DNA of 64,000 nucleotides from a virus (IMGVR_UViG_3300045988_181536:64001-128000); one strand, 5' to 3'. Counted from the stretch's first letter, positions 1,717 through 62,677 are shown. Translations and numbers: made by a program. Notes: generated by a model not told the origin, from the letters alone.

Positions 1717-1733
1717 TTTTTCCTTGCAATATA

Positions 1734-1804
1734 GTCGCATGGTGTAATGGTAGCACAGATGATTTTGGTTCATTTAGTCTAGGTTCAAACCCTAGTGCGA
1801 CTAT
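1734..1804 (+). tRNA. tRNA-Gln (anticodon TTG)
   Basis: Hand-folded cloverleaf: acceptor agtcgca/tgcgact, D-stem gtgt/gcac, anticodon stem gatga/tcatt with loop ttttggt, T-arm ctagg-ttcaaac-cctag. Confidence 0.75.
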
Positions 1805-1820
1805 TGTTCTTTTTCAAACG

Positions 1821-2184
1821 TCCTGGTGGCGAAACAGGTATACGCAGCAGACTTGACAATAATACAAAGGGTCGCCTACGAGAAATCGCTAGGTAAGCAT
1901 TCCGCGAATTGCTGGAACAGCCTTAGAGTCTCACAAACTACAACGTGGTTGGAAACGACGAGCGTGAAGGTTATAAAATTGTGGGAATTGGCCAATCAGC
2001 AGCCAAGGTCCGTTTAGGACAAGGTTCAGAGACTATGTACGGAACATCTAAACGATTTTATAAATCGCATGATGAAGATATAGTCCAATCAGAACATATT
2101 ATTATGGTTTGAGAAATCAAACAATCTGATGTAAAATCTGCTATCCGAAGGGATATGAGGGTTCGAGTCCCTCCCAGGACACCA
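1821..2184 (+). tRNA. tRNA-Leu (anticodon TAA) interrupted by a ~277-nt group I intron in the anticodon loop; 3' CCA encoded
   Basis: 5' exon 1821-~1854 gtcctgg-tg-gcg..cgc-a-gcaga-ct; 3' exon ~2132-2184 taaaa-tctgc, long variable arm tatccgaagggatat, T-arm gaggg-ttcgagt-ccctc, acceptor ccaggac-a-cca. The 7-bp acceptor stem gtcctgg/ccaggac only forms across the 365-nt span. Spliced loop is cttaaaa. Confidence 0.85.
1855..2131 (+). ncRNA. group I self-splicing intron (anticodon-loop insertion, trnL-UAA type)
   Basis: Canonical elements present: P-like gaattgctggaac (~1905), Q-like aatcagcagc (~1993), R gttcagagacta (2024-2035), S aagatatagtcc (2074-2085). Ends in G before the 3' exon; 5' exon ends in T. 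Confidence 0.8.
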
Positions 2185-6775: not shown

Positions 6776-8160
6776 TGTCAACTACTCACCAGATGAACTA
6801 GTGAGCTTGATTTATATGTTTAAATCAATTTTAGACACTTCATTGCTTATGCTTGTTAAATCCTTAGTAGGCTTATCAAGTCTTATTTCAGCTCCATGTC
6901 TGTAATCATCCGTTGCAGATGATAGGATTGTTAATCCTCTTGTTAAAATATTTTTAGCAGCATTAACATCTCTGTCTAAAACTGTTCCGCATTGGGGACA
7001 TACCCAAAATCTATCTTTTAAAGTTAGGCTTTGATTAATATATCCGCAATTATGACAAGTTTTTGACGAAGGGTAAAAATGGTCTATTTTAATTATCTTC
7101 TTACCTTTCCATGCTGCTTTATATTCTAATTTTTGTATCATGCTATTCCAAGAGACATCTGCAATAGCATAAGCCAATTTATGATTTTGCATCATATTTT
7201 TAACAGCTAATGTCTCTAAACAAATTACATCATATTTGTTTAACAACAAGGTACTTAGTTTATGTTGCATATCTTCACGAGAATTGGTTATCTTTTCATG
7301 AAGTTTTGCTATTTTAATTCTAAGTTTTTCTTTTCTATTAGAACCTTTTTGTTTTTTGGAAAAGTGTTTTTGAAGCTTGGATAGTTTTGATTGATATTTC
7401 TTTTGAAATTTTAAGTTGGGATATCGTTTACCATCAGATGTTATAGCAAAATCTTTAATTCCCAAATCTATGCCCACTGCTTTTGTTAAATCTGCAGCAT
7501 CAGGAATACATACGTTTTGTTCTGTTAAAATAGAAACATAATATTTGCCTGACGGTTTTTTAGAAATTGTCGCACTACAAATTTTACCTTTTAAAGGTCT
7601 ATGATTAACAAACTTTATACCGTTCTTAAATTTGGGAATATATATTTTATCATTTTTAATAGCTACATTCTGTGGAACATTAAAAGAATTGTTTCCGTCT
7701 TTACGTTTAAACTTGGGAAATTTAGACTTTTTACTAAAGAATTTTCCAAAAGCCGTTTCTAAATTTTTTAATGATTGTTGAAGGCTTTGGGAATTAACAT
7801 CTTTTAACCACACATATTCCTTTTGCTTTTTAAGTGTAGTTAGAGCTTGTGAGCAATTATTGTAATTTAAAGTCTTTTTATTTTTAAGGTAAAATTCCTG
7901 TTTCTCTTTAAGAAAGTAATTATATACAAATCGGCAATGCCCAAAATGCAATGATAATAGTTCTTTGTCTTCAGGTGAGGGGTAAAGCCTATATTTATAG
8001 GATTTGTATATTGTTTTATTCATTATTTAAGTTAAACTAAAAACTACTTAGAATCAAATAGCAACAAAAAAAAATAAGAATCTATAATAACTTAAACAAA
8101 ACCCCACCATTCATCTTACCAGACAAGCTGGTAAGTTTTCTGGTGGAAATTAATAAAATT
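6776..8160 (-). mobile_element. IS200/IS605-family (IS1341-like) element carrying only tnpB; no tnpA
   Basis: RE hairpin ctcaccagatgaactagtgag overlapping the tnpB 3' end (6796-6817); LE-like nested palindrome ccaccattcatcttaccagacaagctggtaag..ctggtgg at 8104-8150. Confidence 0.6.
6812..8023 (-). CDS. tnpB: TnpB (IS200/IS605 family OrfB, RNA-guided RuvC-like nuclease)
   Basis: N-terminal YRLYPS..ELL..FG.CRFVYN; RuvC-I GIDLGIKDFA, RuvC-II ..CLETL, Zn finger CHNCG..CPQCG, RuvC-III DRDVNAAKNI. Confidence 0.85.
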   Translation of the reverse strand: MNKTIYKSYKYRLYPSPEDKELLSLHFGHCRFVYNYFLKEKQEFYLKNKKTLNYNNCSQALTTLKKQKEYVWLKDVNSQSLQQSLKNLETAFGKFFSKKSKFPKFKRKDGNNSFNVPQNVAIKNDKIYIPKFKNGIKFVNHRPLKGKICSATISKKPSGKYYVSILTEQNVCIPDAADLTKAVGIDLGIKDFAITSDGKRYPNLKFQKKYQSKLSKLQKHFSKKQKGSNRKEKLRIKIAKLHEKITNSREDMQHKLSTLLLNKYDVICLETLAVKNMMQNHKLAYAIADVSWNSMIQKLEYKAAWKGKKIIKIDHFYPSSKTCHNCGYINQSLTLKDRFWVCPQCGTVLDRDVNAAKNILTRGLTILSSATDDYRHGAEIRLDKPTKDLTSISNEVSKIDLNI

Positions 8161-25053: not shown

Positions 25054-27246
25054 ATGCGAACTTTATTTCTTTTGAGAGGAGCCCCAGGAAGCGGCAAATC
25101 CACTTGGGTGAACCGCAATAACTTGGAACCTTATACTTTATGCGCTGATCAAATTCGCACGCTTATTCAATGTCCCGTGCTAAATCTCAACGGAACATTT
25201 TCCATATCGCAGAAAAATGACAAAGAAGTGTGGGAGTATTTGTTTCATTTATTGGAAACTCGAATGGCTCGTGGCGAAATGTTAATAATTGACGCCACGC
25301 ATTATAAGAAAGAATTGCTTAATAAGTATAAAAAACTTGTTAAAAATTATCGTTATAGAGTTTACGTGGTTGATTTTGTTTCAGGCATATCCATGGAAGA
25401 ATGCATGCGTAGAAATCAAAATCGCACGGGTTACAAGATTGTGCCTGACCATGTAATCCAAAAAATGTATTCGGTGTTTAATTCCGAATCTAAGCAAATT
25501 AGAAATGCTTTTACGACTATTTCTCCGGAAGATGCTGTTAAGCTTATCCAAAATACAAATGACCAAGTAAAAGATTTTAATTCTTGGGAAAAAATTTATA
25601 TTTTTGGGGACATCCATGGCTGTTTTGAACCAATAAAAAGTTTTTTTGAAAAATATCCTTATGATGAAAAAGCCTTTTATATCTTTTTAGGCGACTACTT
25701 AGATAGGGGTTTGCAAAATAAGGAAGTATTGGAATGGGCTATAGAATTTGCCGAACATCCAAATTGTTTATTTTTGGAAGGAAACCATGAGAGATGGTTA
25801 AAGCTTTACGCCTCTAAAGATTCCGAGGATCAAAACTTAATAGCTTCTCGTGTGTTCTTAAAAAATACCATACCTCAAATTAAGGATATTGATCCCGTTA
25901 AAATTCGATCTTTTTGCTACAAACTTGCGCAAATGGCACTATTTTCTTATGGTAAACATACGACATGGTTTTGTTGTCATGGAGGGATGCCTGTATTGCC
26001 AAGTCTGCCAATTGCGGCCATAGAAATGATTCATGGTACGGGCAAATATGAAGACATAGATGAAGTGCATAAAGAATTTGAGCGTAGATACGGCAACTTA
26101 AATATCTATCAAGTTCATGGGCATAGAAATGTATACAAAGATGTCTTTAACGCTGACAAAAGTGTTTTTAATTTAAATTCTGCAGTCGAATACGGAGAAG
26201 ATTTGCGTATTTTAAAACTTGCGTTGCAAGAGGACGGATCGGTTACCAAAGAGCTTATAGAAGAACCAAATCCAGTGCATCTCACAGAATCAAACAAGGT
26301 GCGCAGGTTGTATGATAATGAAATAAACAACGACATTATTAAACAACTCTGTGATAATCCGAGTATTATTAAAATTCAATTGGATGACGGAATTATATCT
26401 TATAAATATGATTCAAAATTGTTTTTCTCAAAACAATGGACAGATCTAAATGTTATCGCCAGGGGATTTTTCTGTCGTAAAGATAAAATCATTTGTCGCA
26501 GTTATAATAAATTCTTTAATTATCAGGAACGGATAGAAACATCCCCAAAAGAACTTTGCAAAACATTGCAATTTCCTGTGAGCAAATTTCAGAAAGAAAA
26601 CGGATTCTTGGGATTGGTAAGTTGGGATGCCGAAATGGATAAGGCGTTTATTGCATCTAAATCAACCAATCAAGGCGAATACGCTCAAATGGTTCGTGAT
26701 CGATTTTATGCTTATGACTCATGGAATGAAATGTTAAATTACGCCAAAGAACATAACGTTACATTAATTTTTGAAGTCATAGAGCCGGAAAAAGATCCGC
26801 ATATTATCGAGTATGCACAACCGCATTTAGTGCTGCTGGATATTGTCGAAAACACAATGGAAGGAAAATTGCTTGAATATGATAAACTTAAAGAACTTGC
26901 CAATTCTTGGAACATCCCTTGTAAAATCTTGGAGCATGTTTACAATAACTGGGAAGAGCTTTGGGAAGATCTAAAGCAATTAGAGCATGAAAAAGATTTA
27001 AAGATCGAAGGCTTTGTTTTTCGAGACATCAATAATTATCAGTTTAAGTTTAAAACAAACTATTATAAACGTTGGAAATCGTTTCGCAGCTTAAAAGACA
27101 AATATGCGCGTTCAAAAGATCAAATGAGACAAGTATTTGTTGATAAAGAAGAAACGGATTTTTTCCTTTGGTTGAATACCCAACCTAAAGAATATGTCAG
27201 CAAAACTGATATTATTACTTTGAGACAAAAATTCTTATCTAATTAG
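25054..27246 (+). CDS. polynucleotide kinase / phosphatase / RNA ligase fusion (bacterial Pnkp-type RNA repair enzyme)
   Basis: N-terminal P-loop LRGAPGSGKSTW (T4 Pnk-like kinase); central metallophosphoesterase motifs IFGDIHG, LGDYLDRG, EGNHE, HGG; C-terminal nucleotidyltransferase with KENGF motif I and downstream ligase-like region. Confidence 0.7.
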   Translation: MRTLFLLRGAPGSGKSTWVNRNNLEPYTLCADQIRTLIQCPVLNLNGTFSISQKNDKEVWEYLFHLLETRMARGEMLIIDATHYKKELLNKYKKLVKNYRYRVYVVDFVSGISMEECMRRNQNRTGYKIVPDHVIQKMYSVFNSESKQIRNAFTTISPEDAVKLIQNTNDQVKDFNSWEKIYIFGDIHGCFEPIKSFFEKYPYDEKAFYIFLGDYLDRGLQNKEVLEWAIEFAEHPNCLFLEGNHERWLKLYASKDSEDQNLIASRVFLKNTIPQIKDIDPVKIRSFCYKLAQMALFSYGKHTTWFCCHGGMPVLPSLPIAAIEMIHGTGKYEDIDEVHKEFERRYGNLNIYQVHGHRNVYKDVFNADKSVFNLNSAVEYGEDLRILKLALQEDGSVTKELIEEPNPVHLTESNKVRRLYDNEINNDIIKQLCDNPSIIKIQLDDGIISYKYDSKLFFSKQWTDLNVIARGFFCRKDKIICRSYNKFFNYQERIETSPKELCKTLQFPVSKFQKENGFLGLVSWDAEMDKAFIASKSTNQGEYAQMVRDRFYAYDSWNEMLNYAKEHNVTLIFEVIEPEKDPHIIEYAQPHLVLLDIVENTMEGKLLEYDKLKELANSWNIPCKILEHVYNNWEELWEDLKQLEHEKDLKIEGFVFRDINNYQFKFKTNYYKRWKSFRSLKDKYARSKDQMRQVFVDKEETDFFLWLNTQPKEYVSKTDIITLRQKFLSN

Positions 27247-55217: not shown

Positions 55218-58200
55218 ATGGAAGAACAAGTAAAAACAAAAACCACGGATAATCCGGATCCGTTTACGAATGAGTTTTCCCGACAGATTTGGGAAGTAAC
55301 CTATAAAACGCAAAATGAAAAGAGTATTACAGATACGTGGAAACGTGTGGCAAATGCTGTAGCCAATGTAGAAAAGGATGAAGAATCCAAAAGATTTTAT
55401 GCTGAGGCTTTTTATGAGATTTTAAAAGATTTTAAGTTTATACCCGGAGGTCGTATATTGGCCAATGCAGGGGGTAGTTGTAAGAATGTCTCTCTCGTCA
55501 ACTGTTATCTCTCACCTGCTCCCAAATACGACATGGATTCCGTTGAAGGAATTATGGAGGTATTAAAGAACCAGGTTTTAACTTTAAAATCTGAAGGAGG
55601 CTGGGGTTTAAATTGTAGTTTTATTCGTCCCAGAGGTTCTTATATAGAAGGCATAGGTGCCAGAACCCCCGGTGCTGTAAAGTATTTGGAGCTGTTTGAT
55701 AAAAGTTCCGAAATTATTACGGAAGGTCCAGGAGAGTATTACATAGAGAATAAAGAAAAAACGCCTAAGAATGAAAAGAAGAAAATTCGCAAGGGTGCAA
55801 TGATGCTTTGTTTAAGCTGCTGGCATCCTGATATATACGAATTTATTACTGCCAAACAAAAGCCGTTTCATCTAACTAAAATGAATATGTCCGTAAATGT
55901 TACCAATGCTTTTATGGATATTTTAAATAGAGTTAACGAGCTTGTTAAAAACAATGCTTCGCAGGAAGAAATCGATGCTGTTGATTTTTGGCAATTGAGA
56001 TTTCCTGATACGGCTTTTGAAAAGTATAAATCCGAATGGGATGGAGACTTGGATAAATGGGAGAAAAAAGGTTATCCTGTAAAAGTTTATCGTACAGTAA
56101 GGGCTACTGATCTATGGGAAGCCTTAATGCAGTCTACCAGCAATCGTTCGGAGCCTGGAGTTTTATTTCTCGATAGGGCAAATGAGACACATTGCGCAAA
56201 TTATATCCCTGAGTTGCAATTAGTTGGGACAAATCCTTGTCTTACTGGAGATACCAAAGTTGCTGTTGCTGACGGGCGTACAAATGTGACTATTAAAGAG
56301 TTGGCCGAAGCTGGCAGAGATGTTCCGGTGTTAGCTTGTGATAATGCTGGCAATATTGTTACAAAGTTAATGCGTAATCCTCGTATTACAGGCTATAATA
56401 AAGATATTTATCGAGTGACTTTAGATGATGGTAATCATATTGATTGCACGTCTAATCATAAGTTTAGATTGTCTGATGGAACATATAAAGAGGTAAAAGA
56501 TTTATCAACAGGTGTAGCTTTGCACACAAATACGTTAAGTGTAGAAGAGTATAAACGTTATTTAGTGCAGGAAGTTTTAAATACGGAAATTACCCCTAAT
56601 CTTCAGCTTGATTCCGTACAACAACTGTGTGAAGAAGCAAAGTCTCAGGGTTATGAGGTAAAAATAGATAATAACATAGTTTTGGTTAAGAGGGTTTGTG
56701 AGGAATGTGGAAAAGAACATTTTGTTCCATTTACTCATCGCGAAATTGCGTTTTGTTCTCTGGAATGTTTAAATACCCATTTGAATAAAGAAAAAATCGC
56801 TGCCAAAACCACAAATACTGATTTAGATGTAATATCTGCTGAGGATTGGCCTGTAAGGTTTGTTTCGTCTATTGAATATATAGGCAAACAAGATGTCTAT
56901 ACCGGTACAGTTGATGATGTGCATAATTATTGCGTTGGGATGTTTGAAACTGTGAATGAACATGGACATCCAAAATTTTATATACTTAATAATCAGCAGT
57001 GCGGAGAGCAGGTTTTATACAGCGGAGGATGCTGCAACTTAGGATCCATCAATCTTACGGCATTTATAGAGTACGATGAAACTAAACATGCCGCCGTTTT
57101 TAACTTTCAGAAGTTCTCTGATATTGTTCCTTATTGCGTAAGATTCTTGGATAATGTCATAGACATTGCCAATCTGCCTTTGGAAGAATATAAATATATG
57201 GCTGAAAGTTATCGAAGAATCGGGCTTGGTATTACAGGCATAGGCTCTGCTTTAATGATGTTGGGTCTAAAATACGATTCTAAGGAAGCTAAAGACTTTT
57301 TAACTAAAGTTTTTGATGTTTATAATTTCTTAGGGATAAGGGCAAGTATCGCTTTAGCTAAATGTAAAGGTGCGTTTAAAGGATGCAATCCTGCAAAACA
57401 TGCTGATAATATAAAATATACGTTTAGACATTTACCGAAGTATATATTGGATGCTTTGCAAAAAGAATTGTTAGAAACTAACGGCATCCGCAATTCAGCC
57501 TTGTTCTCAGTCCAACCGACAGGCAATACAGGGTGTCTAGCCAATAATATTTCAGGCGGTGTGGAACCTGTGTTTCAGTTAGAATACTACAGAATTGTTG
57601 GAGTGCCGATTGTTCCTGAAAGCATAAAAGATAAATGTCCTAGGTTCTGGGAGGGGGATTTTACTCCGAACAATTATTTCAAAGAAGTTAAATACGCAGA
57701 TTTTACTTACTTGTCTTACGTAACTGAAGCTGGCCAAGAATATCAGATACATAAAGATAGAGGTCTGTGTGAAAAAGTAAAAATTCGAGATTATGCTTAC
57801 CAATGGATCTTGGATCATAATTTAGAATATCCACAGGAAGTTTTTACAACAGCTATGCAACTACCTGTTGAATCTCATTTGGAAATTCTGAAATTAGTAT
57901 CTGCACATTTGGATTCCGCTGTAAGTAAAACGATAAATGTTGGCAAGGATTACCCTTATGAACAGTTTAAGAATGTTTATTTAGATGCATATAATAGCGG
58001 AGTAATAAAAGGAGTTACGACTTATCGTGAGGGTTCTATGAGTGCAGTATTGCAAACTACGGATTCGAAAGATGACGTAAATCCTACATCTACATCGATT
58101 ATTCATCCTACTATTACTGCTGAGAAACGTCCTGATATATTGCCGTGTAGAGTATTTTTTAGAACGGTAAAAGGAATATCTTATTACTTTATTGTAAGTT

Positions 58201-58664
58201 TCTTGGAAAATAGTCCGTTTGAGATGTTTATTGACATAAATGAAGATAACATTTTTGACGAGGATGGAGAATGGGTTGAGCGCCGTCGCATTATACCCAA
58301 GACTGTAAAGGAAGGAACTTTAAAGAAGTTGGGTAAGGCTACGTTCGAGTTTGTATCTAAAGATGAGAAATTTATATTTAAAATTGTAAAAGCCAATGAG
58401 TCTTCAGATAAAGCCACATTAACAGCCCTTGCTCGTTTGGTGGCTTTGAATTTGCAGTCCGGTGTATCAGTGAAAGAGATAATACATCAGCTATCTAAAA
58501 CCGAAGGGGATTTTACTTCAATTGTGAAAGCAATTAACAAAGTATTGTCTCAGTGTGCTGGTAAAGTTGATCTTGGAGAAACATGCCCTGTTTGCGGAGG
58601 TAAAGTGTTACGTGAAGAGGGATGTAAAAAATGCTATGCATGTGGATGGTCTGCATGCGGCTAA
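55218..58664 (+). CDS. ribonucleotide reductase, class II-like (NrdJ-like), intein-containing
   Basis: RNR motifs NCYLSP, LKSEGGWGLNCSFIRPRGSYI, RKGAMMLCLSCWHPDIYEFI, active-site TNP|CGEQ interrupted by intein, CNLGSINL, C-terminal Cys-rich tail CPVCGG..CKKCYACGWSACG. Confidence 0.75.
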   Translation: MEEQVKTKTTDNPDPFTNEFSRQIWEVTYKTQNEKSITDTWKRVANAVANVEKDEESKRFYAEAFYEILKDFKFIPGGRILANAGGSCKNVSLVNCYLSPAPKYDMDSVEGIMEVLKNQVLTLKSEGGWGLNCSFIRPRGSYIEGIGARTPGAVKYLELFDKSSEIITEGPGEYYIENKEKTPKNEKKKIRKGAMMLCLSCWHPDIYEFITAKQKPFHLTKMNMSVNVTNAFMDILNRVNELVKNNASQEEIDAVDFWQLRFPDTAFEKYKSEWDGDLDKWEKKGYPVKVYRTVRATDLWEALMQSTSNRSEPGVLFLDRANETHCANYIPELQLVGTNPCLTGDTKVAVADGRTNVTIKELAEAGRDVPVLACDNAGNIVTKLMRNPRITGYNKDIYRVTLDDGNHIDCTSNHKFRLSDGTYKEVKDLSTGVALHTNTLSVEEYKRYLVQEVLNTEITPNLQLDSVQQLCEEAKSQGYEVKIDNNIVLVKRVCEECGKEHFVPFTHREIAFCSLECLNTHLNKEKIAAKTTNTDLDVISAEDWPVRFVSSIEYIGKQDVYTGTVDDVHNYCVGMFETVNEHGHPKFYILNNQQCGEQVLYSGGCCNLGSINLTAFIEYDETKHAAVFNFQKFSDIVPYCVRFLDNVIDIANLPLEEYKYMAESYRRIGLGITGIGSALMMLGLKYDSKEAKDFLTKVFDVYNFLGIRASIALAKCKGAFKGCNPAKHADNIKYTFRHLPKYILDALQKELLETNGIRNSALFSVQPTGNTGCLANNISGGVEPVFQLEYYRIVGVPIVPESIKDKCPRFWEGDFTPNNYFKEVKYADFTYLSYVTEAGQEYQIHKDRGLCEKVKIRDYAYQWILDHNLEYPQEVFTTAMQLPVESHLEILKLVSAHLDSAVSKTINVGKDYPYEQFKNVYLDAYNSGVIKGVTTYREGSMSAVLQTTDSKDDVNPTSTSIIHPTITAEKRPDILPCRVFFRTVKGISYYFIVSFLENSPFEMFIDINEDNIFDEDGEWVERRRIIPKTVKEGTLKKLGKATFEFVSKDEKFIFKIVKANESSDKATLTALARLVALNLQSGVSVKEIIHQLSKTEGDFTSIVKAINKVLSQCAGKVDLGETCPVCGGKVLREEGCKKCYACGWSACG
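56238..56999 (+). other. intein (254 aa) inserted before the catalytic Cys of RNR
   Basis: Block A CLTGDTKVAV, block B DCTSNHKF, internal Cys4 segment CEECG..CSLEC, block F VYTGTVDDVHNYCVG, ends ..ILNNQQ followed by CGEQ. Confidence 0.7.
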
Positions 58665-58717: not shown

Positions 58718-61700
58718 ATGAGAGAAAGCGAAATTAATTTACCCCCCGTGAATATGGATTTGCCATGTCCTAAATTGGCAGATTTTTGCGGAGATTTATC
58801 GTATAAACGTTGTAAGGATGACTTAACTCCCGAAAACGATAATGTAGTATTTTTAAATGGTGTAGGCAGGTTAAATGCGGATATAATGTTTTTAACTGCG
58901 GCGCCATTAAAAGAGGATGTGGATGCGAGATATTCTACACCTATGCATTTAAAATCGGGTGCCGGTGAAATGTTTCGCGCAATATGTTTGCAAAATGGCA
59001 TTGATATTGATGACTGTTATTTTACGTCATTAATAAAGTACGGAATAAAACAAAAGAATTTAAAAGGTTGTAAAAAGGATATAGATTATTGTTTGCCTTT
59101 GCTTCTGGAAGAATTTCAGTATTGTCACCCAAAAATTATAGTTTGCGTCGGTACGGAAGCGTGTGACTTTATTTTAAATTATAAAATAAGCGTATCAAAA
59201 TTGGAAGAGGCGTGGTTTTTTAGTCAAGAACACAACGCTCATGTGTTTGTAATTAGCAGTATTTATAATGCCTATTATAAGCCTGAATTGTACGATAAAT
59301 TAGATAAAGAGATAGGCATGTTGGCTGACTTTTATGATCATTTTCTACAAGGCAAGCCAATCGAGCAGATAAAGTGTGACTATCAATGTATTTCAACTTA
59401 TTCACAGTTATCCAATTTGTTAAATCAGCTTAAGTCTGAAGGTTATAAATTATTTGGAGTTGACTGCGAGTGGGGTAAACAATGTTTTGTAGACGGATAT
59501 CTTAGATCAATACAATTTGCATGGGCTCCAGGCAAGGCAGCTTATATAAACTTTAATAATGAACAAGCCGAATGGGTCTTTGATGCATCAAAAGAATCGG
59601 TATGTAAATTATTGCAAGATTTTTTTAATGACCCTGAAGTGCATTTTGTAGGGCATAACGGAGCGGCTGATGCTCAATGGATGTCAACACATTTGGGACT
59701 AAATGTGTATGACGGCAAGTTTATTTTTGACACCATGTTTGGTATTCAGACAGCTGATGAATATGCTGATCAAAAGTTGGAAAAATTAGCTGCCAAATAC
59801 ACAGATAAAGGCAGATATGATATTGATCTGATCTTATGGAAGAAAAATAATAAAGGCGTATCCTTTGATGAAGATGAAGGATATGGACAAGTTCCTTTGG
59901 AAATTCTTTACCCATATGGTTGTTCGGATGCCGATGTAACTTTAAGATTGTATCCGATTATTAAAGACATGTTAATTAAAGACGGCACTTATGATTATTT
60001 CATGAATATTAAGTTGCCGTTTGTTATTGATGGATTTACCTCCATGTCTATTGCGGGTGTGCCTTTTTGCACTGAGGATGCCAATAAAGCGCGAATAGCT
60101 TATCTGGCCGCAGGCGTAGTCATGCAAAAGTTGTTTATGCAAATGCTTAAAAAAGAGGCATATGATTTGTTTTATACGGAAGTGTCAAAAATTCCGCAGG
60201 AAACGCCTGTAGCGAATATTGCAGAAATTCAAAAGTTTTTTGATGATGAAAGATCTTTTGAAGATATTTTTAATCTGTTAAAAAAACTTTATGGGCGCAA
60301 AGCATTGCCTTTATTGCCGTTTGCTGAACATTATTACTATGTGGATGCCTTTAATCCCAATTCTGCAGAGCATAAAAAGAAATGGTTGTTTGACGTAAAG
60401 AAATACACGCCTATTAAAACAACTAAGCCGGAAGAGGGTAATGCAATACCCTGGGAAAGAGTATTAAAAATGTCCCCCGCTAAGCAGAAAAATTATAAGC
60501 CTGCTGTGGATAAAGATACTCTTAAAATATTTGCGGATAAAGGAGATGATTTATGTCTGCATTTATTGCAAATGAATGCAATTAATCAGATAACCAAGAA
60601 TTTTCTAAAAGGTGAAGAAGGCGGGCTGCAAAAGTTTTTAACTTCAGATGGAAGGCTGCATTCCAACTTCGTTATGACCGAAAGCTCACGGCCACGATCG
60701 TTTAAGCCTAACATCTTAAACATACCAAGATATGTTACAGATTACATAGACAAGGGTTTCACGAAAGTATTAAAGTATTTTAATATTACAGATAAATCTG
60801 ATTTGTCGGAGTTTAATGAAGATAATTTTAATGAAATCGTAAATTCTTTACGTGAAACTTACGGCATTACCGAAAATATAACGATAAAAGATATGGTGCC
60901 TGCACCGTTGCGCTGGTGCTTTAAAGCGCCTGAAGGGTATTGTTTTGTCGATGCAGACTATGCCACAGCTGAAGTATGGTCGATTGCATATTTGGCAAAT
61001 GATAAAAAGTTAATTTCCACTTTGAATGATCCGGATCCGCAATTTGCATTTAAAAAGATGCCTGATGGTTCGGAAAAACAAGTGCGTATAGCATATTGTG
61101 ATGACATTGTTGAATTTACTGAAGATGCAAAAGATCCTGCACTACTTGTAGATCCTAATGATCCGGATTTGGTGAGAAATAATGACGGGTCTCTAAAGCA
61201 TCCGAAACAAGATGTTCACTGGGTTGCAGTGGAAAATAAATTTATGCTTAACACACCCCGAGAAAAGTTAAACAAGAAGAAGACGAGAGATGCTGCGGGA
61301 AAGGTAGCTAATTTTTGTTCTGGCAAAGAAAATTACGTTTATACTTTAGAGGGTTATAAAAAAGCAAAGTTAATAAAACAAGGAGATATTTTAAAATCAA
61401 TATCCGGTTTTACAAAAACTTTATCTGTTACTGCTTTAAATGAGAGAGACTGCATTAAGATCAGATTAAGTTCCGGATTAGTGGCTACTTATCATAAATA
61501 TCATAAGCTTAGATGCTTTAATGGTACGGAAATGGTCTGGGTAAGAGTTAAAGATATCGATCCAAAAAGGCATAAAGTAGTTACCTTCAATCCGAGTTTT
61601 ACTGAAGTTATAGGCACTTTTAATGTTCCAAAAGATTCTTATACGGATTTTTATACAGAATTGAAATGTCGTGAAGGTGATAATACCTATCGCTTGCCTG

Positions 61701-62677
61701 AGTGGATATTCTCTTTAAGTCGTGCTGAGATTTGGAGTATATTGCAACGCTTTTTAGAATTAAACCCCCGAGTCACCGATGCGGTGTGTTATCATTTTCC
61801 GTTAAAATTTTGGAAAAATAATTTAGAATTTATTTCCGATATTGCTTTATTGTTGAATTTTATAGGTTTTCAAACCAAGCTTTCGTTGGAACAAGGCGAG
61901 GATGTTTTAGTGGCTTCGGCTGCTATCGAACCTAATGGGCCTTTGCAAAATATTTATTTTAGTGAAGTTGTTTCTTTGGAACATGTGAAAGAAGATATTG
62001 TGGCAATTGAATGTGAATCCCATGAATATATAGACACTTCAATGAATAGCCATAATTCGATTCCTTATGGTGCAAGTCCTTCTTTGCTGGAACGTAACAT
62101 TGAAATAGCTTCAGGTGAAAAACCTGAACCTGGTACGGGACAAAAACTTATTGACGCCTATATGAACACCAAACCGCAAGTTGCAGAATTTTTGGAATGG
62201 TGTAAGTCTCTGCCTGACGGACAAGGGTATTACCAATCGCCTTCGGGATTTAAAAGACATTTTAAAATACCGCCTTTGGATGCTCAAATGTCGGATGATC
62301 TTAGAGAAAGTATCATAAGTAAACTTCGTCGAGAAGCTTGCAATATAGGATTGCAATCTTTGGTTGCTGACTCTTTAGCAAGGGCCATACCTCCACTAAA
62401 TGCCAGTTTTAGAAAGATGAATATGAAGAGCAGAGTAGTAATTCCTTTGTATGACGCTATTTATATTTTATCTCCTTACAACGAAGTCGATTTGGCTGTA
62501 AGTATGTTGAAGTTTTTTATGTCTGAGAATAATTATTGGGACCTAAAAGGCGGTCGCTTGCGTTACAGTATTGATGTCGAAGTTACAAAACGGTGGGGTA
62601 CAGAACTTTCTGAAGAAGAACACAAAGAACTAACTGAAGGATTAAAAAACGCTTGCCAGACGTTCAAGCTTGCGTAG
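58718..62677 (+). CDS. family A DNA polymerase with N-terminal UDG-like domain and 3'-5' exonuclease, intein-containing
   Basis: Exo I FGVDCEW, Exo II FVGHNGAADAQWM, Exo III YPYGCSDAD; Pol motif A FVDADYATAEVWSIAYLA; motif B R..AGKVANF|intein|SIPYGAS; motif C VIPLYDAIYIL; N-terminal ~150 aa weakly resembles family-4 UDG. Confidence 0.75.
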   Translation: MRESEINLPPVNMDLPCPKLADFCGDLSYKRCKDDLTPENDNVVFLNGVGRLNADIMFLTAAPLKEDVDARYSTPMHLKSGAGEMFRAICLQNGIDIDDCYFTSLIKYGIKQKNLKGCKKDIDYCLPLLLEEFQYCHPKIIVCVGTEACDFILNYKISVSKLEEAWFFSQEHNAHVFVISSIYNAYYKPELYDKLDKEIGMLADFYDHFLQGKPIEQIKCDYQCISTYSQLSNLLNQLKSEGYKLFGVDCEWGKQCFVDGYLRSIQFAWAPGKAAYINFNNEQAEWVFDASKESVCKLLQDFFNDPEVHFVGHNGAADAQWMSTHLGLNVYDGKFIFDTMFGIQTADEYADQKLEKLAAKYTDKGRYDIDLILWKKNNKGVSFDEDEGYGQVPLEILYPYGCSDADVTLRLYPIIKDMLIKDGTYDYFMNIKLPFVIDGFTSMSIAGVPFCTEDANKARIAYLAAGVVMQKLFMQMLKKEAYDLFYTEVSKIPQETPVANIAEIQKFFDDERSFEDIFNLLKKLYGRKALPLLPFAEHYYYVDAFNPNSAEHKKKWLFDVKKYTPIKTTKPEEGNAIPWERVLKMSPAKQKNYKPAVDKDTLKIFADKGDDLCLHLLQMNAINQITKNFLKGEEGGLQKFLTSDGRLHSNFVMTESSRPRSFKPNILNIPRYVTDYIDKGFTKVLKYFNITDKSDLSEFNEDNFNEIVNSLRETYGITENITIKDMVPAPLRWCFKAPEGYCFVDADYATAEVWSIAYLANDKKLISTLNDPDPQFAFKKMPDGSEKQVRIAYCDDIVEFTEDAKDPALLVDPNDPDLVRNNDGSLKHPKQDVHWVAVENKFMLNTPREKLNKKKTRDAAGKVANFCSGKENYVYTLEGYKKAKLIKQGDILKSISGFTKTLSVTALNERDCIKIRLSSGLVATYHKYHKLRCFNGTEMVWVRVKDIDPKRHKVVTFNPSFTEVIGTFNVPKDSYTDFYTELKCREGDNTYRLPEWIFSLSRAEIWSILQRFLELNPRVTDAVCYHFPLKFWKNNLEFISDIALLLNFIGFQTKLSLEQGEDVLVASAAIEPNGPLQNIYFSEVVSLEHVKEDIVAIECESHEYIDTSMNSHNSIPYGASPSLLERNIEIASGEKPEPGTGQKLIDAYMNTKPQVAEFLEWCKSLPDGQGYYQSPSGFKRHFKIPPLDAQMSDDLRESIISKLRREACNIGLQSLVADSLARAIPPLNASFRKMNMKSRVVIPLYDAIYILSPYNEVDLAVSMLKFFMSENNYWDLKGGRLRYSIDVEVTKRWGTELSEEEHKELTEGLKNACQTFKLA
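61316..62056 (+). other. intein (247 aa) inserted in DNA polymerase motif B
   Basis: Starts C at NF|CSGKENYVY, ends ..SMNSHN followed by SIPYGAS; the extein junction restores ANF-SIPYG, matching the PolA motif B consensus; internal region may be a degenerate homing endonuclease. Confidence 0.65.

Follow-up and report, generated by a model that had tools for sequence, protein, structure and literature searches.

A phage tRNA-Leu(UAA) gene interrupted in its anticodon loop by a group I intron, with intron-less alleles and HNH-bearing relatives

The group I intron of cyanobacterial and plastid trnL(UAA) genes interrupts the anticodon loop between U34 and A35 (CUU/a...g/AAAA, site Leu.3Ug; Williams 2020, doi 10.1101/2020.01.27.920355; PMC13011429), and bacterial transfer RNA (tRNA) introns are known at nearly all anticodon-loop positions (PMC13011429). 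All phage introns observed by 2014 lay in protein-coding genes, despite the many tRNA genes that phages carry (Hausner, Hafez and Edgell 2014; PMC3984707), and the literature searched, which included recent papers on intron-rich gut phages and a 2025 intron database paper, yielded no account of a phage tRNA gene with a group I intron. Described here is a tRNA-Leu(UAA) gene at positions 1820-2184 of a 64,000-nt viral sequence (IMGVR_UViG_3300045988_181536:64001-128000; this whole stretch is referred to as the window), in which a 278-nt group I intron interrupts the anticodon loop one nucleotide upstream of the classical site. Very probably the gene is functional and belongs to an uncultivated phage of the human gut, about 166-174 kb in size, its intron at U33/U34 being a derivative of a mobile HNH family from which the homing endonuclease gene (HEG) has been lost.

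The Rfam model Intron_gpI (RF00028) matched window 1851-2105 (+) over its full length (1-253) with a score of 68.7 bits (E 2.4e-15), above the gathering score of 50 bits, and a permissive rerun at E≤0.1 found no second group I element in the 64 kb. The split gene was missed by default ARAGORN and by the Rfam tRNA model. When run with its intron search (-i), ARAGORN placed a tRNA-Leu(taa) at 1820-2184, its intron 278 nt long and its junction agaCU/UGAC...GAUG/UAAAA. Removal of the intron leaves an 87-nt type II tRNA-Leu cloverleaf, in which a 7-nt loop holds the UAA anticodon, the variable arm is long and A73 precedes a gene-encoded CCA; uninterrupted orthologues of the gene scored 57.2 bits with the Rfam tRNA model. 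An interrupted tRNA-Leu(UAA) had been proposed in an earlier reading made from the sequence alone (the sequence-only reading), and both the Rfam search and intron-aware tRNA finding, together with the intron-less alleles, bore it out, the start being corrected from 1821 to 1820 and the intron length from about 277 to 278 nt. Nor is the acceptor-stem pairing a chance one: the minimum-free-energy fold of the 365-nt precursor contained the acceptor, D, anticodon, variable and T arms along with P2 and P4-P9 (z = -4.1; none of 100 shuffles folded as well), and five intron-less contigs lacked exactly the 278 nt in question.

These intron-less alleles came from a scan of IMG/VR and the ENA metagenome collection with the 3′ exon, which retrieved 11 related contigs reaching 166-174 kb. 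They derived from several separate assemblies, some labelled human-gut metagenomes, and included at least one duplicate pair (IMG/VR L002 and ENA L241). The tRNA gene was uninterrupted in five distinct contigs (L001, L002 = L241, L238, L240 and L242), which read GCAGCAGACTTAAAATCTGCTATCC, lack window 1854-2131 and have the anticodon loop CTTAAAA, the same spliced loop that had been predicted from the split gene. The intron was present in five sister contigs (L003, L235, L236, L239 and L243); counting the window, six intron-bearing contigs thus stood against five distinct intron-less ones, a presence/absence polymorphism at an identical site among close relatives, as is characteristic of mobile introns. 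The 5′ exon was identical or near-identical in the intron-less alleles, and the 3′ exon was 100% identical across the nine contigs of the flank comparison and across the 11 aligned related contigs.

The sister alleles also fixed the insertion site. In the window allele the first intron base is U, so that, taken alone, its DNA does not distinguish CU/U...G/UAAAA from CUU/...GU/AAAA. The base at +1 is C in all five sisters, which leaves the 3′ exon as the only source of U34 and makes G the last base of the intron. Together with the pairing in P1, the sister alleles put the intron between U33 and U34 (CU/...G/UAAAA), and unambiguous 33/34 insertions were found in three further contigs (L204, L207 and L227). 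The sequence-only reading had thus been right about the terminal G, which is G2131, and wrong in equating the insertion site with that of the cyanobacterial and plastid intron.

The six intron-bearing alleles differed chiefly in the P1, L6 and P9 loops; two changes in P2 of L239 fell outside them. Between genomes the intron was 98.1-99.2% identical (1-2 mismatches in about 265 nt) and the flanks 87-97.5% identical, and by flank similarity the intron-plus and intron-minus genomes were interleaved. The high intron identity would fit purifying selection, recent lateral spread, or both. No clear co-conversion tract was seen in these alleles; the exon D-loop varied among them, inconsistently with intron presence.

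The intron has the helices of a group I core. From an alignment of the window intron with eight relatives, running from the internal guide sequence (IGS) to omega-G (A1, nine sequences), RNAalifold independently predicted P2, P4, P5, a three-helix P5 extension, P6/P6a, P7, P8 and P9a, with compensatory changes in 33 of 58 pairs. Our own model of P2-P9a, which adds the P3/P7 pseudoknot and was counted separately, had standard pairs in 93.5% of cells, against 29-38% when the 3′ partners were slid by 1-3 columns; 34 of its 62 pairs showed compensatory change, and none of 500 shuffles reached the observed values. P4 was invariant, as was P7 with its G2031-C2085 pair (9/9 family members), and the helices of the P5 extension were 93-99% paired, with compensatory changes in 13 of 19 pairs. 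P9 is off by one column in A1 and was hence read by eye; it covaries (UCAGA/UCUGA in the window, AGUAA/UUACU in L204, ACUAC/GUAGU in L052 and ACUCA/UGAGU in L207). The P (1907-1919), Q (1995-2004), R (2024-2035) and S elements lie where the sequence-only reading had placed them. Assignment of P7 and the guanosine site also leans on what we take to be homology to the Tetrahymena P7. The internal loop of P8 appears to be tetraloop-receptor-like, the canonical CCUAAG/UAUGG motif occurring at the same place in L227.

In P1, exon G1850-A-C-U1853 pairs with G1870-G-U-C1873, an IGS pairing with the exon end that had likewise been anticipated, and the wobble U1853.G1870 marks the 5′ splice site. Base 1854 faces G1869 as U.G in the window and as C-G in the five sisters, in which U33.G1870 is consequently the sole wobble at the splice site. 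A U.G pair at the splice site and a terminal omega-G were found throughout the five sisters and the 33/34 relatives. Further along the core, four nucleotides (UGUA, 2036-2039) separate P7 from the 3′ strand of P3 and none separate the latter from P8; the 4-nt gap leaves no room for P7.1/P7.2, the helices that mark subgroup IA2. The P5 extension of about 65 nt is likewise at odds with the short P5, free of any P5abc-like extension, of compact IC3 introns. A subgroup name, IA2 or IC3, was considered and dropped, as the structure looks mosaic.

Table 1. Features of the split tRNA-Leu(UAA) gene, its ribozyme and the surrounding window (nucleotides counted from the first letter of the window)
Feature	Position	Strand	Basis
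tRNA-Gln(UUG), 15 nt upstream of tRNA-Leu	1732-1804	+	default ARAGORN, Rfam
5′ exon of tRNA-Leu(UAA): acceptor 5′ strand, D arm, anticodon-stem 5′ strand, C32, U33	1820-1853	+	ARAGORN -i
P1: exon GACU 1850-1853 and base 1854 with IGS GGGUC 1869-1873; loop 1855-1868	1850-1873	+	read from sequence
Group I intron, 278 nt, no open reading frame; first base U, last omega-G2131	1854-2131	+	Rfam, intron-less alleles
P2 hairpin, GAAA tetraloop 1882-1885, one bulged C	1875-1893	+	RNAalifold; 5/7 pairs compensatory
P3 5′ strand UUCCG, partner 2040-2044, pseudoknot with P7	1900-1904	+	100% of cells paired (9 sequences), 4/5 pairs compensatory
P4 (1910-1915/1996-2001), P5 (1920-1922/1990-1992), P5 extension of about 65 nt (1923-1989) with GAAA loop	1910-2001	+	RNAalifold, own counts
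P6/P6a hairpin	2002-2025	+	Rfam, RNAalifold, own counts
P7 5′ strand in R element, including G2031-C2085 guanosine-binding pair; partner 2081-2086 in S	2029-2035	+	Rfam alignment
P3 3′ strand CGGAA, 4 nt after P7	2040-2044	+	sequence, own counts
P8 hairpin, internal loop AUCUAAA / CAUGAU resembling tetraloop receptor	2045-2074	+	RNAalifold, own counts
P7 3′ strand in S element (S = 2075-2086)	2081-2086	+	Rfam, own counts
P9 (2089-2093/2125-2129) around P9a (2107-2112/2117-2122), GAAA tetraloop; then U2130, omega-G2131	2089-2129	+	P9a 5/6 pairs compensatory
3′ exon: U34-A35-A36 anticodon, A37, A38, anticodon-stem 3′ strand, long variable arm, T arm, acceptor 3′ strand, A73, CCA	2132-2184	+	ARAGORN, allele alignment
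TerL	13006-15045	-	
Pnkp/RNA-ligase fusion, 730 aa, polynucleotide kinase/phosphatase-RNA ligase	25054-27246		PHROG 8238, E 2e-185
Ribonucleotide reductase (RNR) large subunit with intein splicing domain, residues 349-573	55218-58664		
UDG-PolA fusion, 1319 aa, N-terminal UDG domain	58718-62677		

Relatives of the intron were sought by scanning IMG/VR with a generic R...S pattern and with a pattern joining S element, anticodon loop and T arm, followed by intron-aware ARAGORN and a rule calling for U at -1 and omega-G. One restrictive pattern scan returned 26 IMG/VR contigs with tRNA genes split by group I introns, most of them tRNA-Leu(UAA); the description of such introns in the sequence-only reading as rare in phages agrees with the literature searched but calls for some qualification in view of this count. 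ARAGORN placed the junctions wrongly at several loci, and that of L204 was set by hand; genes called as tRNA-Phe(GAA) and tRNA-Ser(GCU) became Leu(UAA) and Arg(UCU), respectively, under the U(-1)/omega-G rule.

One family shares the entire window ribozyme, including the P5 extension. Its members at 33/34 are L204 (IMGVR_UViG_3300008459_000274; intron of 751 nt, HNH_3 above the Pfam cut-off), L207 (817 nt, sub-threshold HNH_3 match) and L227 (480 nt, no endonuclease found among open reading frames (ORFs) of at least 50 aa). Those at 34/35 are L052 and L222 (755 and 756 nt, both with HNH_3 above the cut-off), L211 (747 nt, a homologous ORF with the same motif) and L231 (293 nt). In the long copies the ORF lies in the P1 loop and reads into the core. 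The closest relative, L204, occupies the 33/34 site of a different phage's tRNA-Leu(UAA) and carries a 211-codon HNH_3 ORF that extends from the P1 loop into the core. It has the same IGS as the window (AAGGGUCGCC), its P2 and P3 differ from those of the window solely by compensatory changes, and the ribozymes are 72% identical, whereas the host tRNA exons are just 67% identical.

Translation of window 1862-1903 gives a peptide 93% identical to the C-terminal 14 residues of the L204 ORF, and the window intron is therefore very probably an endonuclease-deleted derivative. No ORF of HEG size was present within its 278 nt. Its possible mobility, raised in the sequence-only reading, thus holds for the lineage, which has HNH-bearing relatives, but not for the window copy, which has no endonuclease gene and so cannot move by itself.

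Within the family the IGS follows the site: it is GGUC in all 33/34 members and GAGUC or GAGCC in all 34/35 members. A neighbour-joining tree, which sets the 34/35 members apart by one split, would fit a single site shift. The family pattern of P5 extension and Q matched only L003 and L052 among viral contigs and nothing in 185,579 prokaryotic species genomes, and a scan with an IGS-P2 pattern returned only L003 and L204. Two further IMG/VR contigs (L201 and L210) have compact 204-nt tRNA-Leu(UAA) introns at 33/34 that are without the P5 extension and have an IGS-P2 start, GGGUCGC..., resembling that of the window. Ribozymes that otherwise differ may have the one-nucleotide shift, or the P1-P2 module, in common.

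The scans also returned split tRNAs of suppressor type. Three IMG/VR contigs (L209, L214 and L221) carry a tRNA(CUA) with a 689-nt, ORF-containing group I intron between positions 35 and 36, and in L229 the group I-split tRNA resembled a tRNA(UCA) after its junction was reset; annotation that ignores introns would overlook recoding tRNAs of this kind. The S-element/tRNA pattern also matched four contigs binned as archaeal metagenome-assembled genomes (L135, L145, L152 and L167; Promethearchaeota, Bathyarchaeota and Hodarchaeum), and ARAGORN found no split tRNA in any of the four. Group I introns are said not to occur in archaea, and these contigs may be mis-binned or viral.

The intron of the window is well folded and very probably splicing-competent, and the following sequence of events is proposed. 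The tRNA-Gln/tRNA-Leu precursor would be transcribed and the intron would fold as P1-P9, with exon GACU held in P1 by the IGS GGUC and U33.G1870 as the wobble pair. An exogenous guanosine bound at the P7 pair G2031-C2085 would attack after U33; omega-G2131 would then occupy the guanosine site, and the 3′-OH of U33 would attack after G2131. The product would have the loop CUUAAAA and the junction ...GCAGACU-UAAAAUCUGC..., giving a mature tRNA that decodes UUA and UUG. Because P10 is weak or absent, the anticodon stem (GCAGA/UCUGC) probably aligns the exons. In the Anabaena pre-tRNA the anticodon stem is said to align the exons, reportedly in work by Zaug et al. from 1993.

The intron's ancestor would have belonged to an HNH-encoding mobile family that targeted the anticodon loop of phage tRNA-Leu(UAA) genes. 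Its endonuclease ORF would formerly have stood in the P1 loop, and the 14-codon tail over the IGS and P2 would be all that remains. Since that ORF has been lost, the intron would persist or spread by recombination or by means of an endonuclease supplied in trans during co-infection, and an intron-bearing allele would be immune to the endonuclease of the family. A wider proposition, which as a whole we regard as doubtful, is that phage tRNA genes are a regular, overlooked niche of mobile group I introns, that one A-to-G substitution in the IGS (GAGUC to GGGUC), followed by reverse splicing, moved the site by a nucleotide from 34/35 to 33/34, and that the HEG-less copy was kept as an immunity of the tRNA-Leu gene in co-infection. 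If true, the locus would be a natural, datable case of RNA-guided retargeting of a group I intron.

Several points weigh against a functional, formerly mobile intron in the window. Splicing is deduced from sequence and fold. The U at +1 of the window allele creates tandem wobbles (U1853.G1870 and U1854.G1869), and cleavage after 1854 combined with omega-G2131 would give an anticodon loop of 8 nt. The window allele has essentially no P10 pairing to the 3′ exon, against about 3 bp in L003-type alleles. No HNH homologue that could mobilise the intron is encoded in the 64-kb window, and Pfam found nothing in the small flanking ORFs. The divergence of the lineage is too low to tell purifying selection on the ribozyme from a recent sweep. 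Moreover, the intron is absent from half of the related genomes and other relatives may be without tRNA-Leu altogether, so that the phage may be able to do without this tRNA and could for some time put up with a dead intron.

Four other explanations were weighed. In the first, the locus would descend directly from the ancient cyanobacterial/plastid trnL(UAA) IC3 intron at the classical site and would have reached the phage along with a tRNA gene captured from a host. It shares the loop and the tRNA species with that intron, four family members from other phages (L052, L211, L222 and L231) occupy the classical 34/35 site, and P1-P2, P8 and P9/P9a are colinear with those of compact 34/35 tRNA-Leu introns of bacteria and phages. 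Two GAAA tetraloops and the receptor-like P8, which we take to evoke an Azoarcus/Anabaena-type architecture, count on the same side. The intron, however, lies at 33/34, and its IGS has changed to match (from GAGUC to GGUC). Its P4-P6 domain has an extension of about 65 nt that compact tRNA introns lack, and is 73-84% identical to introns in protein-coding genes of isolated phages. In addition, the P5-extension/Q pattern went unmatched in the prokaryotic species genomes, and all recovered bacterial tRNA-Leu introns are compact and at 34/35. Direct descent from the IC3 intron is thus improbable.

A second possibility is that the intron is a decaying, splicing-dead remnant in a tRNA-Leu pseudogene, tolerated because the host supplies tRNA-Leu(UAA). 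The endonuclease gene has gone, HEG loss being the usual step ahead of intron decay; the intron is missing from half of the related genomes; and the window allele has the tandem U.G ambiguity and no P10. Every core helix is nevertheless intact and P4 and P7 are invariant, allele differences keep mostly to the P1, L6 and P9 loops (apart from the two changes in P2 of L239), the 1-2 intron mismatches in about 265 nt compare with flanks differing by 2.5-13%, and the exons are intact, with complete conservation of the 3′ exon. We consider a dead remnant quite improbable on this evidence.

A third explanation would have the intron co-opted by the phage, either with splicing gating the supply of tRNA-Leu(UAA) according to GTP level or timing, or with the interrupted loop shielding the gene or its precursor from a nuclease that targets tRNA or tDNA. 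Among the phage's proteins is a Pnkp/RNA-ligase fusion of a type usual in tRNA repair, UUA is its main leucine codon, and the tRNA gene holds the sole group I intron in 64 kb that also contain the usual phage intron targets TerL, RNR and PolA. No direct evidence of co-option was found, selfish persistence covers all observations, and the presence/absence of the intron among near-identical phages argues that it is not required; co-option is accordingly very unlikely. Lastly, an assembly artefact or chimeric contig joining a tRNA gene to a foreign intron might be suspected from the metagenomic origin of all related sequences, but five other contigs of IMG/VR and ENA human-gut assemblies share the window's split gene, junctions included, by which an artefact is effectively refuted.

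A functional tRNA-Leu(UAA) gene with a HEG-less intron is also in keeping with codon use: UUA is the most-used leucine codon in the long ORFs of the window (35.7%; UUR 61%), and tRNA-Leu(UAA) would therefore plausibly be useful to the phage. The sequence-only reading had placed the gene in a tRNA cluster, which is true of the tRNA-Gln(UUG) gene directly upstream, probably co-transcribed with tRNA-Leu, and not of the other tRNA genes, all at least 10 kb away. In two intron-less human-gut contigs (L238 and L240), the region homologous to window 1732-1775 has the 5′ half of tRNA-Gln replaced by unrelated sequence, and the tRNA-Gln beside the intact tRNA-Leu is probably truncated there. Just 3′ of the tRNA-Leu CCA, a segment of about 200 bp (2192-2387) contains a 21-codon ORF (2215-2280) and, at about 2303-2345, a 13-bp hairpin without mismatches that leads into a T-rich tail. 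This segment is kept in the window, L003, L235, L236 and L243 and absent or replaced in L001, L002, L238, L239 and L242, a distribution that makes it unlinked to intron presence.

The window belongs to a large uncultivated phage. TerL and PolA are just 23-25% or so identical to those of any isolate, megablast of window 1-25000 against isolated phages gave no match, and a crAss-like Zeta-group identity was considered and found unsupported. About 700 residues of PolA, between the exonuclease and polymerase domains, have no Pfam match. The Pnkp/RNA-ligase fusion is the classic type of tRNA anticodon-loop repair enzyme. At 6776-8153, 4.6 kb from the intron, the window has a segment of about 1.4 kb with a 403-aa transposase (ORF 6812-8023, - strand; PHROG 506, E 1e-132), whose place is taken by about 140 bp in L001 and L002, contigs otherwise about 94-96% identical; this looks like an insertion-sequence polymorphism.

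The window locus and at least 25 further IMG/VR contigs extend the targets of phage introns to tRNA genes. Standard annotation misses split tRNAs, as default ARAGORN did here, and phage tRNA repertoires, codon and recoding inferences and suppressor tRNAs may accordingly be undercounted. The human-gut lineage offers natural intron-plus/intron-minus pairs, a HEG-bearing relative at the same site and sister introns one nucleotide apart whose guide sequences differ to match, a compact system for the study of homing, endonuclease loss and splice-site retargeting of group I introns. A well-folded 278-nt ribozyme in tRNA exons may also interest those who build permuted intron-exon tools for RNA circularisation.

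Compared, by published descriptions, with the classical cyanobacterial/plastid trnL(UAA) intron, the window intron shares the anticodon loop of tRNA-Leu(UAA), U at -1, a terminal G, the lack of an ORF (as in most classical copies), GAAA loops on P2 and P9, a short P1 and probable exon alignment by the anticodon stem. It differs in lying at U33/U34 rather than U34/A35, with the IGS shifted to match, in its P5 extension, in having a phage host instead of a cell or plastid, and in having relatives with HNH ORFs in the P1 loop. A second scan of prokaryotic genomes returned 70 bacterial loci. Many of these carry compact introns, located either in tRNA-Leu(UAA), without exception at 34/35, or in tRNA-Arg(UCU). 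In the compact bacterial tRNA-Leu introns, P1-P2, P3, P7, P8 and P9/P9a run colinear with those of the window, the S element is the same (AAGAUAUAGUCC) and, as in the window family, some copies have HNH or other HEGs. Their lack of a P5 extension and their site set them apart, as do P4 and R (AAUUCGGUGAA / GUGUAGAGACUA against AAUUGCUGGAA / GGUUCAGAGACUA). Compact phage introns (L198-L201, L206, L208, L210 and L230) are colinear in P1-P2, P8 and P9/P9a, again with no P5 extension and with other P4 and R sequences.

In isolated phages only the domain comprising P4, P5, the extension, P6 and R matched, over 100-130 nt. The matching introns interrupt protein-coding genes: nrdE of Twort, genes of Staphylococcus phage DW2, nepoznato and Bacillus phage BpSp, RNR beta of Pseudomonas KIL phages and RNA polymerase beta of Serratia phage 2050HW. 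They are phage-borne and often HNH-associated, as is the window family, but interrupt ORFs and not tRNAs. The three that were aligned (2050HW, nepoznato and BpSp) have a long R-to-S segment with extra P7.1/P7.2-like helices, and hence are of IA2 type; the window intron is without these. In side-by-side comparison, window 1910-2035 was set against L232-L234, and window 1869-1893 and 2045-2131 against L198-L230. The window family looks mosaic, a tRNA-intron scaffold combined with a phage-type P4-P6 domain, which points to an exchange of domains between lineages of introns. Elements of this kind are known, and what is new is its phage tRNA host, its shifted site with a matching change of guide, and its apparently mosaic ribozyme.

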